DNA from: Gemmatimonadota bacterium
GTDB lineage: Bacteria; Gemmatimonadota; Gemmatimonadetes; Longimicrobiales; Gaopeijiaceae
NCBI GenBank assembly: GCA_034521595.1
Contig: JAXHMG010000003.1
Coordinates: 2,560,001-2,624,000 of the forward strand
Direction of reading: 5' to 3'
Length of the DNA stretch: 64,000 nt
A model generated the notes under the pieces. The model worked only from the letters and a program-made list of their open reading frames with translations, had not been told where the DNA came from and searched no databases. This document shows, piece by piece, positions 4,302 to 20,210 of the stretch; the stretch's first letter is position 1, and each line of letters begins with the position of its first letter. Position numbers and translations under genes: made by a program.

Positions 4302-5975
4302 ATGACCGGAGCCGAAGCGATCGTGGCCGTTCTGGAGGACGCGGGGGTCGAGGTCGTATTCGGTCTCTGTGGCGACACCTCGCTCCCTTTCTACGACGCC
4401 CTCGCCCGAAGCGACGTCATCGAGCACGTGCTCACCCGCGACGAGCGTAGCGCGTCGTACATGGCGGATGCATATGCCCGGCTGAGTGGACGTGTAGGGA
4501 TCTGCGAGGGACCCAGTGGAGGCGGAGCGACCTACATCGTTCCGGGCGTCGCCGAAGCCAACGGTTCGTCCGTGCCCGTGGTGTGCCTCACGTCCGATGT
4601 CGGCGTCGAGGACCGTGGCAAGGGGACTTTGACCGAGATGGACCAGCGAGCGCTCTTCGCGTCTCTCACGCGAGCCGCGTTCGATCCCGGCAGCGCGGAC
4701 CGCATGGCCGAGGACGTTCGGGACGCGTTCACGGTTGCGACCGGCGGAAGCCTCGGAGCTTGTCACGTCAGCCTTCCACTCGATCTCCAAAGCGCCTCCG
4801 CCGGAACCCGACCGGTCGCGACGAGCGACCGCTACCCCCGGGAGCGGCCCGAGCCCGACCCCGAGGCGATCACCCAGGCCGCGAAGGTCCTTTGTGAATC
4901 CCGCCGGCCGGTGATCGTCGCGGGCGCCGGTGTGCTCCGTTCGGGCGCGTGGGATTCGATCACCCGGCTCGCGGAGACACTCGGAGCGGCCGTCGCCACA
5001 TCGATCTGTGGTAAGGGCGCCATCCCGGAGACGCACCCGCTCTCTCTGGGCGTGATCGGAAGCAACGGCGGACTCTCCTGGCGGCACGACCTCGTGCGGG
5101 ACGCGGACGTGGTCTTCTACGTCGGTGGAGGCACCGGCTCGGTCACGACCGAAAAGTGGTCACTGCCCCCTGCAGGATCGGCTACCGTCCTCCAGCTCGA
5201 CACGGATCACGACCGCCTCGGCCGCAACCACGACCTGGCGGCGGGGCTGCTCGGAGACGCTCGGGTCGGGCTCGACTCGTTGATCGAGGCCGTGAACCGG
5301 GAAGGCGGCGGCGGAGCGGGAAGCCGCTTCGATCCCGAAGCCATCCGAGCCGGCAAGGCCCGCCACCGGGGGCGGACCGAAGAGCTCTTCGCATCCCCGG
5401 AAGTCCCGATCCGCCCCGAACGCCTCATGAGCGAGCTGTTCGATGCGTTGCCCCCACGGTCGGTCGTGCTCGCAGACCCCGGCACGCCGTGTCCCTACGT
5501 GTCGGCCTACTGGGAGCTTCCGGAAGCCGGACGTTGGTTCGTAAGCCCCCGTGCGTTCGGAGCGCTGGGCTATGCTTTACCGGCCGTGGTCGGTGCATGG
5601 TACGCGCGGCCGGATGCCGGGCAGATCGTGGGCGTCATGGGTGACGGCTCGTTCGGAATCTCGGTGGGGGAGCTCGAGACGCTGGTCCGCCTCCAGGTTC
5701 CCGCGGTGCTGATCGTATGTAACAACGCAGGGTACGGTTGGATCAAGGCGGGACAGAAGTCCCGGGGTGACCGCTACCATGCGGTCGACTTCGGTCGATC
5801 CGACCATGCCGCCATCGCACGCGCCTATGGAATGGAAGCCGTCCGGGTGGAAGACCCGGCGGAGCTGGAGGGCGCGCTGCGTGCGGCCATCGGGCACGCG
5901 GGCCCCTGCTTGGTCGATGTCGTGACACAGCCGCTCGAAGAGGCTCGGGCGCCCGTGTCCAAGTGGATCGCATGA
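4302..5975 (+). CDS. Thiamine-pyrophosphate-dependent enzyme (acetolactate synthase large subunit-like family)
   Basis: MTGAEAIV...VFGLCG, RDERSASYMADAYAR, GDGSF...CNNAGYG TPP motif; AAGGAG RBS upstream. Confidence 0.9.
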   Translation: MTGAEAIVAVLEDAGVEVVFGLCGDTSLPFYDALARSDVIEHVLTRDERSASYMADAYARLSGRVGICEGPSGGGATYIVPGVAEANGSSVPVVCLTSDVGVEDRGKGTLTEMDQRALFASLTRAAFDPGSADRMAEDVRDAFTVATGGSLGACHVSLPLDLQSASAGTRPVATSDRYPRERPEPDPEAITQAAKVLCESRRPVIVAGAGVLRSGAWDSITRLAETLGAAVATSICGKGAIPETHPLSLGVIGSNGGLSWRHDLVRDADVVFYVGGGTGSVTTEKWSLPPAGSATVLQLDTDHDRLGRNHDLAAGLLGDARVGLDSLIEAVNREGGGGAGSRFDPEAIRAGKARHRGRTEELFASPEVPIRPERLMSELFDALPPRSVVLADPGTPCPYVSAYWELPEAGRWFVSPRAFGALGYALPAVVGAWYARPDAGQIVGVMGDGSFGISVGELETLVRLQVPAVLIVCNNAGYGWIKAGQKSRGDRYHAVDFGRSDHAAIARAYGMEAVRVEDPAELEGALRAAIGHAGPCLVDVVTQPLEEARAPVSKWIA

Positions 5976-6091
5976 AGCGCGACGAGCCGAGGGCGGGCCA
6001 CCGATGGATCCTAGGGCGAGGATCGGGCCTATAAGGGTATCGGGACGCGTCACCACTCGCCGGCGCGGCACGAACAACGCAGAACGAGGTC

Positions 6092-6508
6092 ATGACCATG
6101 CGAGCTCTTGCACCGGCCACCCTGTTTCGGAGCTCTCTCGTCCTGGTCTCACTGCTCGGCGTCGGCGCTTGCGGGCTCACGACGAGCTCGCACAACCCTT
6201 TCGACGGCAGCCTCGAGCAGGAGCAGGAAGACCGGCTGCGGATCCAGATCCAGAACATGAACTTCAACGACGTCACCATCTACGCCGTGTCGGCAGGCCA
6301 GCGGGAACGGCTCGGCAACGTGACCGGGAAGACGGATCGGAACTTCCGGCTGCGGTGGAATTACGCCAACCCGATCTCGTTCGAGATCGACGTCGTCGGC
6401 GGGTCCGGGTGTGACACGAATCCGCTCGCCGTCGAACCGGGTGCTCGGGTCTGGGTCCAGATTCCCAACCAAGTGAGGTCTTCGGGATGCCGCTCCGGAC
6501 GAGCCTGA
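6092..6508 (+). CDS. Hypothetical lipoprotein, paralog of the next gene
   Basis: Signal peptide with lipobox VGAC; shares N-x-N-F, AVS, RLG-x-x-x-GK-x-D, EID, V-x-PG, QI, GCR with 6487-7146; GAGG RBS. Confidence 0.8.
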   Translation: MTMRALAPATLFRSSLVLVSLLGVGACGLTTSSHNPFDGSLEQEQEDRLRIQIQNMNFNDVTIYAVSAGQRERLGNVTGKTDRNFRLRWNYANPISFEIDVVGGSGCDTNPLAVEPGARVWVQIPNQVRSSGCRSGRA

Positions 6509-7146
6509 CCGCGCTAGCAGCCCGTGGTAGAAGTCTGGTGGCCCGCGTTGGGAGCGCCACGGCCCGTGCTCCTATGGCGGAGCCCCGAAGGCATAGCCGT
6601 AGCTACGTCGAGGGGCTCCAACGACGGAGCGGGGGCCGTGCCGCCCCAACCCGGAGGGCACGAGGGGATTGCGGCCGCATGCGGCGTTGGCTCCTTTCGC
6701 CGATGCTGCAGCATCGCCTTCAAGAAGCCGCCTTGCCTGCGACACGCAAGACCCTCGTGCGCGGACCACCAAACTTCTACCACGGGCTGCTAGCATTCGC
6801 CCTCCTGGCGAGCGGGTGCGCCGGAGGCGGCATGTCGACTTCGGACGGCCCCTTCGCGGCCGCGAGCGACGGTCCCCGGACGGTGAGCATCCACGTGCGG
6901 AACCTCAACTTCAGCGAGGCGCGCCTCTGGGCCGTGAGCCGTGGCGGGCGTCAGCGATTGGGTGTGATCGACGGAAAAGCCGACGCGGTGTACCGCATCA
7001 CCTGGACCGTGTCCCAACCGATGCAGATCGAGATCGACCTGCTCGCCGGCCCCCGCTGCATGACGGAGCCGATGCAGGTGGATCCCGGCGACGATCTCGA
7101 GCTCCAGATCCAGATGGACTTCTCCCGTCAGCCGGGATGTCGCTGA
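6487..7146 (+). CDS. Hypothetical lipoprotein carrying an in-frame 92-codon palindromic-element insertion in its signal peptide
   Basis: Removing 6514-6789 gives MPLRTSLTALAFALLASGC-AGGG..., a canonical lipoprotein signal; the mature part is homologous to the upstream gene. Confidence 0.8.
   Translation: MPLRTSLTALAARGRSLVARVGSATARAPMAEPRRHSRSYVEGLQRRSGGRAAPTRRARGDCGRMRRWLLSPMLQHRLQEAALPATRKTLVRGPPNFYHGLLAFALLASGCAGGGMSTSDGPFAAASDGPRTVSIHVRNLNFSEARLWAVSRGGRQRLGVIDGKADAVYRITWTVSQPMQIEIDLLAGPRCMTEPMQVDPGDDLELQIQMDFSRQPGCR
6514..6793. mobile_element. MITE-like palindromic element, copy 1 (30-bp TIRs, flanked by CTAG/CTAG)
   Basis: Left CAGCCCGTGGTAGAAGTCTGGTGGCCCGCG vs reverse complement of right end CAGCCCGTGGTAGAAGTTTGGTGGTCCGCG (28/30); CTAG at 6514-6517 and 6790-6793; homologous copy at 19041-19317; no transposase. 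Confidence 0.92.
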
Positions 7147-7177
7147 CCCGGACGCCCGGGCCGCGACCGCCGGCCCG

Positions 7178-8353
7178 TCAGTACAGAAGGAAGGGCTCCA
7201 CAGCGCGTGTGAACTCGTCCAGCTCGTCACTCACCCCGGCCATCAACGCCCGCGCATCGGCGCCCGAATCGATTCCCGTCCGCAAGCCGTCATGCCCCCA
7301 CAGGAGATCGATCGGCATCGTCTCCTGCTCGTACTCGTAGGGGGGCGGGCGCCAAGCGAGCATGCTCGGGGCGAGCGCTCGGACGGCCGCCAGGATCTCC
7401 ACGGCGGCGCGCACCGGCTCGAAGCGCTGGGGATCGTCCACGTGGAGCTGCGCCCCCCCGCAAAGACGGCCCGCATGCTTCTGGAAGGTGGGCTCGAAGT
7501 GACATGGGCGGAGGGTCACGCCGTCGCCGAGCCGGGAAGCGAGCCGTGAGACCAGGGCGCGAGGGTCGACGAACGGGGCCCCGAACAGCTCGAAAGGCCG
7601 GGTCGTGCCGCGGCCTTCGGAGAGATTCGTTCCCTCGAGAAGGACCATCCCGGGGTACACCTCACAAGACTCCGGCGTCGGGAGATTCGGGCTCGGCATC
7701 ACCCAGGGAAGGCCCGTGTCCGCCCACCTCATGTCTCGGCGCCAGCCGGTGCAGGGCACGACCTCCAGCCGACATCCGATCGCCCGCTCCTCGTTCAGCC
7801 AGCGCGCGAGCTCCCCGGCCGTGAGGCCGTGCCGGAGCGGCACCGGATGCAGACCCACGAACGACTCGAATCCCGGCTTCAACAGCGGACCTTCCCGCTG
7901 CACGCCCCCGATCGGGTTCGGGCGGTCGAGCACTACGAAACGAACGCCGGCTTCGGCGCAGGCTTCCATCGCCAGCGCCATCGTCCACACGAACGTGTAG
8001 ACCCGAACTCCCACGTCCTGCAGATCGAACACGACCGCATCGAGGCCGTCGAGCATCTCCCGGGTCGGCTTGCGCACCGCGCCGTACAAGGAATGTACCG
8101 GCAGCCCGGTGACGGGATCGTGGTAGCCCGCGGACTCCACCATGTTGTCCTGCTTCTCCCCGCGGGCTCCGTGTTGAGGACCGAACAGGGCCCGGACATT
8201 GAAGCCCGCGTCCACGAGCGCGTCGGCCGTGTGCACCAAATCCGGGGTCACCGAGGCCGGATGCACGATCAACCCCGTGCGCTCCATCCTCAGGTCCCCG
8301 TGCGCTCCGGCCAACACGCGCGAAAGCCCGGGTCGTACGGTCACGGCTCCCAT
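7178..8353 (-). CDS. DUF1343 / NamZ-family exo-beta-N-acetylmuramidase
   Basis: LFGPQHG, VHSLYG, FDLQDVGVRVYTF, VLDRPNPIGG, PSPNLPT, NLSEGRGTTRPFE motifs. Confidence 0.92.
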   Translation of the reverse strand: MGAVTVRPGLSRVLAGAHGDLRMERTGLIVHPASVTPDLVHTADALVDAGFNVRALFGPQHGARGEKQDNMVESAGYHDPVTGLPVHSLYGAVRKPTREMLDGLDAVVFDLQDVGVRVYTFVWTMALAMEACAEAGVRFVVLDRPNPIGGVQREGPLLKPGFESFVGLHPVPLRHGLTAGELARWLNEERAIGCRLEVVPCTGWRRDMRWADTGLPWVMPSPNLPTPESCEVYPGMVLLEGTNLSEGRGTTRPFELFGAPFVDPRALVSRLASRLGDGVTLRPCHFEPTFQKHAGRLCGGAQLHVDDPQRFEPVRAAVEILAAVRALAPSMLAWRPPPYEYEQETMPIDLLWGHDGLRTGIDSGADARALMAGVSDELDEFTRAVEPFLLY

Positions 8354-17147: not shown

Positions 17148-20100
17148 TCAGCCGTCCCGATCCGCCGGCGGAAATCGGACGGCGAATGTGGCCCCCTGCC
17201 CGGGTTCGCTCTCGACATGGATCGTGCCACCACTCTGCTTGACGATTCCGTACGAAGTGGCGAGCCCCAGACCGGTTCCACCCCGATCCCGGCGGGTGCT
17301 GAAGAACGGCTCGAAGATCCGCGCCCGGGTCTCTCGGTCCATCCCCTCCCCGGTGTCGGCGACCGTCACCGTCACGTACTCTCCGGCGAGGATTCCGGTG
17401 AGCGGTACGGCCTGAGCGGCCTCGATTTCCTCGAGTTCCACCGCAACCGTCACGACACCACCGCGTGGCATCGCGTCCCGCGCATTCGCCACCAGGTTCA
17501 TGACGACTTGCTCGAGTTGGACGCGATCGACGCGCACCGGCGGCAGATCCGGGCTGAGCTCCATGATCAGATCGACGGTGTCCCCGAGCAGTCGCTCCAG
17601 AAGTGGCTCGAGTGATCCCAGCACCGCCGCCACGTCGACCAGGCGTGGCCGGAGCACCTGATCCCGGCTGAACGCGAGGAGCTGTCGGGTGAGCTCCGAT
17701 CCACGCTCGGCGGCGTCCCGGATGAGCGTCACCTCCTCGGCCCATTCGCTTTCTTCCGGAAGGTCGATCAGGAGTAGATCGGATTGGCCCACGATCACCG
17801 TGAGCAGGTTGTTGAAGTCGTGCGCGACGCCTCCCGCGAGCCGGCCCACCGCTTCCATCTTCTGCACCTGCCGTAGTCGCCGCTCGAGCGTTCGCCTTTC
17901 GGTTACGTCACCCGCGACGCCCAGGATTCGGCGCACGACCCCCTCCTCGTCACGAACCGGGAACGCGCGATCCCAGATCCACCGAATCTCGCCGTCGGGA
18001 CGTACGATGCGGTATTCCTCGGCGTAGGTCCCTTCACCCTGACGGGGAAGGGCCGCCCGCACTTCTTCCACATCGTCGGGATGAACCGACTCCAACCATG
18101 CTTCGGGCCGTTCGAACAGCTCGCTCGACGACTTCCCCCAGATGCGCTCGAACGCCGGGCTCACGTACTCGACATGGCCGTCGGGCGCCATGATCCAGAA
18201 GACATCCTGGACGTGCTCGGCGATCTCGCGGAACCGCTGCTCGCTCTCCCGTAGCTGCCGTTCAGCTTGCACTTGCTCCGAAATATCACGCACGACGCTC
18301 ACGACACCGCCGTTCAACCCGGCTTCCGGGTCCAACAGGGCGACCGTCTGGTGCGCTTCGAACACCGTTCCGTCGCGCCGGCGCATCGGTAGGGTCGCAC
18401 GGTGGACCATTCCCCGCCGGAGCGTCGCCTGACTCTCGCGGCCGAAGGCGTGGAATCGCTCACGGGAAGCATGGAGGAGCTCGGTGCGGGAACCGATCAT
18501 CTCCTCCCGGTCCCAGCCGAAGATGAGCTCGGCGGCCCGATTCACCTCGACGATGGTGCGGAAGTCACCCTCCCCCCCGATGACCAACACGGCCTCCGAG
18601 ATGTTCGTCACGATCCGTTCGAGGAAACGCGTCGTCTCCAGGAGGCGCTCGGAGGCGCCACGGCGCTCCGTGATATCCTCTGCGAGCCCACCGATCCGGT
18701 AGACCACGCCCCTCTCGTTCGGAATGGGGAAGAGGTGCAACCGAATCCACCGCGGTTCGTCGCCCTCGTCGCCTACCCGAAACTCGACGTCGCAGGGGGC
18801 TTCACGCGCTGCCGTGAAGCCGGTCCGCAAGCGTTCCCGATCGCTCGGCATGGCATGGTCCGGCACCTCGTCCCAGTGCGCTATACGCTCGGTCCGATCG
18901 AGAAGGTCGGAGAAGCCCGGGCTCGCATGGAGGGTCGTTCCGTCCATGTCCATCAGCACGAGCGCCGTGCCCATGTTCTCCAGAAGCTGGCGGAATCGCC
19001 GCTCCTGGGTCCGCATGGTGTGCTGAGTGCGTTCTCGCTCCCAGCAGCCCGTGGTAGAAGTCTGGTGGGCCGCGTTGGGAGCGCCACGGCCCCAGACCCT
19101 AGGCGACACGACGAAGGCATAGCCCTGAGCTACGTCGAGGAGTGGCAACGACGGAGATGGGGCCGTGCCGCCCCAACCCGAAGGGCACGGGGTTGCGGCA
19201 TCGTACGGCGTCATAGCTCCTCCCCGATGCTTTGGCATCGCATTCGTCGCTCTTCCTTGTACGATATCCGCAAGACCCTCGTGCGCGGCCCACCAGACTT
19301 CTACCACGGGCTGCTAGACCCGCCCCAGCTGCACCGCCGCCTGCTCGACGAGCGTCACCAACTCGGGCTCTCGGATGACGTCGGAGGAGGAAGCCAGCCA
19401 CATCACGGCCGGCACCCGCGATCCCGCCAAGACCGGAACGGCCAACGCGAGCCCGCGGTCCCGCGACTTCCCGGTCGGCGCCGCAGGCTCCCCTTCCGCG
19501 ATGGCGCCGGACCGAACCGCCCTGCGATCGGTCCGGGCCCGCTCGACCAGCTCCAGAGCCGCGCCCGGGACCTCGGCCCCCACGAGCTCGAACGGTTCGG
19601 AGTCGCTCCGCGCGGAGGCGGACGTGTAGCGGAACGGGGAAGGGGTCAGCGCACCGCTCTCCTCCACGTAGAATACCCGCGCGACCTCGAAGCCGGCCGC
19701 GTCGCAAATCAGTGGAACGGCCCGGGTGAGCGCATCGCCGAGTGTATCGTGCGCGTTCACGAGCGCCGTCACCTGCTGCAACAACTCGACGTGCCGGCGT
19801 GCTCCCAGCGCTGTCGGCACGAGCCCCTTCCCTTCCGGGGGCGGAGTGTCGGAGATGTCCTGGATATATCCGGTCAACTCCTGACCGTGGCCAGTCTCCG
19901 TCCCTCGTCCTTGCGCGAGCACCCAACGCTCCGACCCACGCCGCGTTCTGATCCGGTAGGCCACCCGGAATGGAACCCCCTCGGCCAGGGCCTCGTCGAT
20001 CTCTCGAGCGACCCGTTTCCGGTCATCCACGTGCACGAGCGAGGCGAACGAGCGCTCGTCGTTGTGCACGAGCTCCGTCGAGCGATATCCGGTGAGCTCG

Positions 20101-20210
20101 TGCACGTTCTCGCTGAGCGCGAGCATCGTCCAGTGGGCATCGTTGCGGCAGCGATAAACGACACCCGGCAGATCGCTCACGCTCAGGATGTGCTCGAGAG
20201 GCTCGCTCAC
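17148..20210 (-). pseudogene. Multi-PAS/GAF sensor histidine kinase split by the palindromic element (ORFs 19314-20210 and 17148-19307)
   Basis: PAS (LPGVVYRCRNDAHW) and GAF in the 5' part; three PAS domains, H-box KMEAVGRLAGGVAHDFNNLL, N-box QVVMNLVANARDAM, G-boxes DTGEGM and GTGLGL in the 3' part. The two ORFs are in the same frame, separated only by TAG 19316-19314. Confidence 0.8.
19041..19317. mobile_element. MITE-like palindromic element, copy 2 (perfect 30-bp TIRs, flanked by CCAG/CTAG)
   Basis: TIR CAGCCCGTGGTAGAAGTCTGGTGGGCCGCG perfect at both ends; internal sequence homologous to 6514-6793. Confidence 0.92.

Follow-up and report, generated by a model that had tools for sequence, protein, structure and literature searches.

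An in-frame miniature transposable element within the signal peptide of a Gemmatimonadota lipoprotein gene

How can a gene for an exported lipoprotein accommodate a transposable element in the middle of its signal peptide? The question is raised by a small gene (6487..7146, + strand) in the window studied here, a 64,000-nucleotide stretch (G000:C3:2560001-2624000) of a Gemmatimonadota genome that is 67% G+C and 93% complete. The gene carries a miniature inverted-repeat transposable element (MITE) between codons 10 and 11 of its lipoprotein signal peptide. Its open reading frame (ORF) nevertheless extends from the native ATG through 219 aa, including 92 inserted codons. The insertion is young and lineage-specific, and it was made by a TA-duplicating MITE at the only YTAR sequence of this conserved lipoprotein gene. 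It has left intact the native Shine-Dalgarno sequence and start codon, the hydrophobic core (LLAFALLAS), the lipobox (A-S-G-C) and the mature domain. Judged from sequence, the chances are about even that the insertion is tolerated, with predicted export by way of a long leader that is cleaved off or, as the less likely route, of initiation at an internal start.

Structure of the interrupted gene

The insert consists of a 274-bp MITE (6517..6790, + strand) plus a duplicated TA, which together add 276 bp. The element begins with GCAGCCCGTGGTAGAAGT, ends with ACTTCTACCACGGGCTGC and encodes no transposase. Native leader codons 1-10, MPLRTSLTAL (6487..6516, + strand), close with a CTA codon that contains the target TA. 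The left copy of the duplicated dinucleotide (6515..6516) lies within CTAG 6514-6517 and the right copy (6791..6792) within CTAG 6790-6793, so that the two CTAG sequences are spaced by 276 bp, or 92 codons. Inverted repeats of 35 nt with 94% complementarity (6513-6547 and 6760-6794) bound the insert. In the occupied frame, MPLRTSLTAL is followed by 92 inserted residues ending in ...RGPPNFYHGL-L, and these lead directly into AFALLASGC, the native hydrophobic core and lipobox (6793..6819, + strand), which is retained together with its Cys codon (6817-6819). The frame survives because 276 is a multiple of three and because the element entered in the one phase and orientation that presents no stop codon.

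Excision of the 276 bp in silico yields a 127-aa product, MPLRTSLTAL|AFALLASGC..., with the lipobox cysteine at position 19 and a leader that fits the G+LPP-type lipoprotein pattern. A preliminary description of this locus had reported an open, in-frame insertion in a lipoprotein signal peptide, and all the features it claimed are present. The right repeat does encode ...RGPPNFYHGLL immediately before AFALLASGC, and precise removal of the insert does give a product with the same length and pattern as real orthologs. The further claim that the insertion rebuilds the hydrophobic region is overstated. A hydrophobic core survives beside the lipobox, but AFALLASGC belongs to the original gene, one Leu derives from the target codon that was duplicated, and the element itself contributes Gly-Leu only. 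The best nine-residue Kyte-Doolittle window scores 2.56 with the insert versus 2.52 without it. The uncharged run GPPNFYHGLLAFALLASG and the lipobox are unchanged from any upstream start.

Orthologs and the age of the insertion

A six-frame search of 41 genomes detected homologs of the interrupted gene in 34 of them, among which are all 24 other members of the family. Each of the six same-genus orthologs has a short, uninterrupted leader of the MPIRTSLTAL..LASGC type, for example MPIRTSLTVCALALVVTGC. Protein searches recovered 19 relatives of 127-166 aa, none of which carries the insert. The closest relatives are P0032 (129 aa, leader MPIRTSLTALTLALLASGC), which is 91% identical to the window protein, and two proteins of 127 aa that are each 87% identical to it, P0001 (leader MPIRTSLTALTLAFLASGC) and P0033 (leader MPVRTSLTTLTLALLASGC). 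Because the leaders of relatives are uninterrupted, the insertion is recent and specific to one lineage. Because these leaders match the reconstruction, the N-terminus that had been proposed for the empty allele is ancestral; it occurs in all six same-genus genomes and in P0001, P0032 and P0033.

The lipobox cysteine is invariant in all 20 aligned sequences. The empty allele, evaluated by script, and the orthologs share the basic n-region, hydrophobic core and lipobox cysteine of the lipoprotein pattern. The mature lipoprotein of the occupied gene (6820..7143, + strand) is predicted to be all-beta and has no Pfam family. It keeps all 30 invariant columns of the 20-sequence alignment and has no damaging change, so the decay that had been considered from the outset is not seen in this part of the gene.

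The occupied allele is also represented in short-read contigs from two runs of one salt-pan sample. Contigs pass from unique flanking sequence into the element on both sides (6100-6547, 6180-6540 and 6742-7400), and the insertion is therefore real and not the product of a mis-join. None of the sample's contigs joins across the element. Neither an empty allele nor a joint that skips the element was seen among these contigs, which drop rare variants and could thus hide a rare empty allele.

Contigs of runs X1/X2 that contain the right-hand MITE junction depart from the window sequence at two positions, 7060 A>T (Met to Leu, the residue of P0001) and 7086 C>G (synonymous). These differences represent either a second occupied haplotype or assembly noise.

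The element and its family

The terminal 18-mer of the element occurs four times in the window, versus 0.04 occurrences expected. The genome carries 18 complete MITE copies and additional fragments on three contigs. The copy in the lipoprotein gene, referred to here as copy 1, is 95-97% identical to the nearest of the others. Element and duplicated TA together add between 260 and 385 bp in the complete copies. Their flanks read xTA-G[CAGCCC...GGGCTG]C-TAy, and 14 of the 18 have TA on both sides, inside YTAR. In two copies the outermost bases are A...T instead of G...C, and these are still complementary. End bases that differ between copies and stay complementary belong to the element, so the duplication is TA inside YTAR. 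A 4-bp duplication of the IS5-like kind was rejected, as most of the 18 copies have unequal 4-mers at their two ends. Terminal repeats, small size, lack of a transposase, dispersed copies and a target duplication make this element a non-autonomous TA-duplicating MITE. No Rfam match was obtained over 6400-6900 at E values up to 1, and no Pfam family was found on the ORF that spans the element.

Elements of the IS630/Tc1 group duplicate TA and prefer targets of the CTAG type, and the TA duplication inside YTAR seen here is in IS630/Tc1 style. A DDE_3 (PF13358) transposase domain was found neither in this genome, the missing 7% of which lies outside the search, nor in any of the six same-genus genomes. 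The domain is present in seven of 24 family genomes. None of 12 IS630-type loci from relatives has the terminal repeat of this MITE at an end. The one locus with clear ends, an IS630-type element in a genome from a related genus (G015), encodes a DDE_3 transposase and is flanked by CTAG, and its terminal repeats are different. Five complete copies with the same ends as this MITE were found in same-genus genomes, all of them intergenic.

Within the element is a core hairpin of about 110 nt (6542..6652, + strand) that is conserved across genera. The core sequences of the window (6542-6652 and 19068-19176) have counterparts with 70-88% identity in other genera, where they reside inside CTAG-flanked elements with other terminal repeats. 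In an alignment of 21 core sequences, 95% of the cells pair and 20 of 31 base pairs show compensatory changes. This level of covariation is reached by none of 500 shuffled controls, and slid controls contain at most six such pairs. One pair of the core is mostly G-U on this strand. The core hairpin corresponds to no Rfam family. It was considered as an oriented RNA gene, and this candidate was rejected because the copies are about half sense and half antisense to neighboring genes, according to our own reading of the neighbors.

Target availability explains why copy 1 landed in a leader. The tetranucleotide CTAG is about 13-fold under-represented in this genome, with 818 occurrences seen versus 10,535 expected from base composition. 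Outside the element, the interrupted gene contains a single CTAG, located in the leader. It has three TA dinucleotides, and the duplicated target accounts for two of these. The gene's single YTAR is formed by CTA-G of Leu10-Ala11. Only 295 YTAR sites were counted in the 1,402 ORFs whose start is supported by a Shine-Dalgarno motif. Codons 1-15 of these ORFs have 2.04 sites per 1000 codons versus 0.40 for the part beyond codon 150, a difference of about five times in which the first figure may be inflated by some mis-set starts.

A second interrupted signal peptide

A second MITE copy (G000:C3:871671-872029), located outside the window, interrupts a gene for a DUF4159 protein (G000:C3:871658-872692; L008:1491-2522) and adds 363 bp. 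Inserted after codon 4 of the signal peptide, it shares phase and orientation with copy 1, and its frame is open throughout. The fusion reads MTSL|121 aa|VLVAVLVLGAPGLGAAQ, where the inserted residues end in ...RKTLVRGPPDFCHGL-L and are followed by VLVAVLVLGAPGLGAAQVGDS.... The occupied leader would comprise 145 residues to the predicted cleavage site. This copy is of a different subfamily: its identity is 96% with a copy from contig C1 and 89% with copy 1 over shared columns. It occupies the only YTAR of the DUF4159 gene. The insertion is missing from all six same-genus orthologs and from P0035, which is in the same 90%-identity cluster. In just these two of the 18 copies does the element frame continue into a coding GC pattern. 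The open frame of the element encodes a recurring peptide, LAARGRSLV...RKTLVRGPP.F.HGLL.

Start sites and the predicted route of export

Shine-Dalgarno motifs in this genome peak at -15..-8 and accompany 31% of first starts versus 14% of internal controls; the 16S tail carries CCTCC. Upstream of the native start, ATG 6487, is a Shine-Dalgarno-like GAGG (6475..6478, + strand) that begins at -12, inside the preferred window. Translation from this ATG would place a 110-residue leader before the cysteine (Cys111), with 21 Arg/Lys and 4 Asp/Glu residues in its n-part. The internal ATG 6679 (6679..6681, + strand; MRRWLL...) had been put forward as an alternative start. It is in frame, and the GAGGGG noted upstream of it exists (6662-6667), but this places GAGG at -17, outside the usual -15..-8 window, and in a predicted stem (6658-6673/6745-6760). 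With this start the cysteine becomes residue 47. Overall, the lipoprotein pattern fails from ATG codons 6487, 6574, 6679 and 6703 and fits from TTG 6733 and GTG 6757, neither of which has a Shine-Dalgarno motif. GTG 6757 (6757..6759, + strand) resides in the right repeat and would provide a 20-residue leader, (M)RGPPNFYHGLLAFALLASG|C.

Public annotation uses none of these starts. It begins the gene at ATG 6832 (6832..6834, + strand), after the lipobox, where GGAGG (6823-6827) at -9 precedes a 104-aa product with no signal peptide. The DUF4159 gene is annotated from an ATG inside its element (257 aa), equivalent to ATG 6679 of copy 1. With these public starts, the localization predictions for both proteins are wrong or doubtful, regardless of how the occupied alleles behave. 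The protein collection contains neither the 219-aa ORF nor the products from ATGs 6574, 6679 and 6703.

In signal peptides with long N-terminal extensions and in internal or cleavable signal-anchors, a basic N-terminal stretch that precedes a short hydrophobic core with a peptidase site can still guide the protein to Sec export and cleavage. In the route that we favor, translation from ATG 6487 would generate a preprotein with a strongly basic 110-residue leader. With this basic leader kept on the cytoplasmic side, the retained core would engage Sec; Lgt would lipidate Cys111, and signal peptidase II would then remove the whole leader together with the insert. A less likely route is initiation within the element, at GTG 6757, TTG 6733 or ATG 6679, which would supply a shorter leader. 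Export from the occupied allele is probably less efficient than from an uninterrupted one. The preliminary description had suggested that the insertion is tolerated because it is cleaved off with the signal peptide. This proposal appears plausible and draws some support from the second, independent in-frame copy in another signal peptide.

Alternative explanations

A number of observations weigh against tolerance by way of a cleaved leader. The leader from the native ATG fails the lipoprotein pattern because its last charged residue is too far from the N-terminus, and the internal starts lack a Shine-Dalgarno motif or lie inside predicted stems. The terminal stem of 35 bp might impede ribosomes or recruit RNase III. 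An intact mature domain carries little weight when, as here, both insertions are young. Under a rough null model, the probability that one intragenic insertion is open and in frame is about 0.13, the product of 0.60 for phase (176 of 295 sites), 0.5 for orientation (assumed) and 0.44 for length (the added length is divisible by three in eight of 18 copies). Two cases of two would then have a probability of about 0.02. However, the choice of copy 1 depended on its open frame. The fair question is then how likely a further open case would be among the other intragenic copies, for which the figure is roughly 0.13-0.24, and the DUF4159 insertion as evidence for tolerance is suggestive and no more. 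Searches for further fusions point the same way. The 93-aa element peptide had 11 matches among 1.84 billion representative proteins, with no fusion among the nine that were fetched; a region search with the insert of the DUF4159 gene gave no match among 7,535 candidates; and 18 loci with long open frames, examined in 200 family genomes, included no clear fusion.

These points lend weight to the principal competing explanation, to which we assign rather less than an even chance, that the occupied allele is a young null or strongly weakened allele. The n-region would be split from the hydrophobic core, the 219-aa product would be cytoplasmic or degraded, the frame would be open by chance, and there would have been no time for decay. 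One of the six frames through copy 1 is stop-free, close to what chance predicts at 67% GC (an estimated 0.12 or so per frame), and an open frame alone would be weak evidence for function. The absence of the insertion from all close relatives and the near identity of copy 1 to its nearest copies mark the event as recent. Target availability alone accounts for the landing site, and no older in-frame insertion shared between species emerged from the protein, region and family-genome searches. The adjacent tandem paralog (described below) is intact and may cover a loss. Set against a null allele are the same open arrangement of an independent copy in the DUF4159 signal peptide, the intact start signals, hydrophobic core and lipobox, a mature domain free of damaging change, and the failure to see an empty allele among the sample's contigs, even though contigs drop rare variants. 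Far less probable is that the insertion is an adaptive regulatory hairpin, in which a structure that begins 26 nt past the start codon would be maintained because it tunes translation or mRNA stability. The RNA from 6470 to 6830 does have a very stable predicted fold (-231.5 kcal/mol, z = -9.7), and its core is conserved with covariation. However, this structure is common to every copy wherever it is located, copies show, on our reading of the neighbors, no consistent orientation to adjacent genes, the insertion is specific to one lineage, and the core belongs to no Rfam family. In addition, a scan of 5900-7300 revealed no promoter-like site and, on the minus strand, a single terminator-like site, no more than chance would give. 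The regulatory role proposed earlier for the hairpin thus finds no specific support, the fold being the sole evidence for regulation at this gene. An assembly artefact that misplaced a repeat in the gene is scarcely credible. The element is multi-copy and short-read contigs break inside it, but contigs of two runs cross from unique flank into the element on both sides, and the TA/CTAG junctions are exact.

Element peptides in other genomes

Sequences encoding the element peptide were detected by six-frame search in 44 of 201 family genomes. Among the nine fetched protein matches, one runs into a downstream gene, probably because its start was called too early, and the rest are largely within an element. 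Fourteen of the 18 loci examined for fusions are open frames of more than 200 aa with no internal stops. In four of the 18, named by eye as leuS-, alaS-, SDR- and GT2-like, sequence of the coding type follows downstream and its apparent start comes after the element, although the start of the GT2-like gene is only a possible GTG.

In the relatives G060, G002 and G007 (loci L120, L142, L144 and L147), related MITE copies are immediately upstream of leuS-, SDR-, alaS- and GT2-like genes, lie in the sense orientation and happen to share the frame of these genes. Automated gene prediction could run such ORFs into the element, as has apparently happened in P0020.

Relation to known mobile elements

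The classic in-frame intragenic MITEs are the Rickettsia palindromic elements (RPEs), and ERIC and BOX are others. A review (PMC10969869) that cites Ogata et al. (2000) describes RPEs as short palindromic mobile elements found in frame in coding genes and places nearly half of all RPEs in genes. Like an RPE, the MITE described here is a palindromic element that sits in frame and adds a peptide of its own, with one open frame and a recurring peptide. Several differences set it apart. Two of 18 copies of this MITE are in genes, compared to the nearly half given for RPEs in that review (PMC10969869). Both insertions are in cleavable signal peptides rather than in mature domains, and both are lineage-specific, being missing in all six same-genus orthologs, rather than shared between species. 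This MITE also has classic terminal repeats and a TA duplication.

With MITEs of the IS630/Tc1-mariner type it shares terminal inverted repeats, a TA duplication in YTAR/CTAG, small size and many copies. It departs from them in that no DDE_3 transposase was found in its own genome (93% complete) or in the six same-genus genomes searched, the insertion sequence of the related genus having other terminal repeats, and in that it carries a covarying 110-nt core common to MITEs with other ends. Compared to long-extension signal peptides, the leaders of 110 and 145 residues are far beyond usual lipoprotein leaders and are transposon-derived, and their function is a prediction. In-frame MITEs in bacterial genes are already known; the location inside a signal peptide is the new element. 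Full-text literature searches brought up no earlier description of a MITE located within a signal peptide that is cleaved.

If both genes are still exported, bacterial Sec and lipoprotein leaders could have room for some 100 additional basic residues, and cleaved leaders would be a region where mobile DNA enters genes at little cost. Such tolerance would matter for the survival of genes during bursts of transposition and for the way in which gene callers handle loci of this kind. Should the genes be dead, the case is one of a recent insertion of the ordinary sort. A broader and doubtful proposal is that signal peptides serve as safe harbors for this MITE family, in that, in a genome purged of CTAG, rare intragenic YTAR sequences cluster in the first codons and the insert would be discarded by signal peptidase I or II. 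The end of the open frame, RKTLVRGPP.F.HGLL, which is basic and then hydrophobic, would restore the boundary between n-region and h-region. Genes for secreted proteins would in this way survive insertions of 92-121 codons, and leaders of 110-145 residues would be functional. Were the safe-harbor proposal true, it would be the first case of transposon sequence carried within bacterial signal peptides.

Neighboring features of the window

Immediately upstream of the interrupted gene is a tandem paralog (6092..6508, + strand) that overlaps its start by 22 nt. This paralog encodes a small lipoprotein whose leader, ...LLGVGAC, fits the lipoprotein pattern. The two proteins are 37% identical, and their genes form an adjacent pair in all six same-genus genomes. 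Both are small lipoproteins with a conserved cysteine pair, no Pfam family and a predicted all-beta sandwich. The model of the mature protein from the interrupted gene is an eight-strand all-beta domain (mean pLDDT 77). A Foldseek search of the PDB gave no match at E <= 0.001; the best match, a type III secretion system pilot lipoprotein (2yjl, E = 3.5e-3, TM 0.43), is a generic beta sandwich.

Copy 2 of the window (19044..19314, + strand) has CA instead of TA as its left target copy. It adjoins the stop codon TAG of a 298-aa PAS ORF (19314..20210, minus strand) and is located just upstream of a PAS/HisKA/HATPase ORF in the same frame. No orthologs that could decide between a split kinase and two genes were found in the six same-genus genomes. 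The locus is either one split kinase gene or two genes with an insertion at a stop codon. It was dropped as a case of gene disruption: the PAS ORF ends at a TAG formed at the target, and two adjacent genes are at least as likely.

According to rough gene calls, four MITE copies are 1 nt from the end of a flanking ORF. From this position, stop codons of the form TAG or TAA that follow a pyrimidine would seem to be hit often by the MITE.

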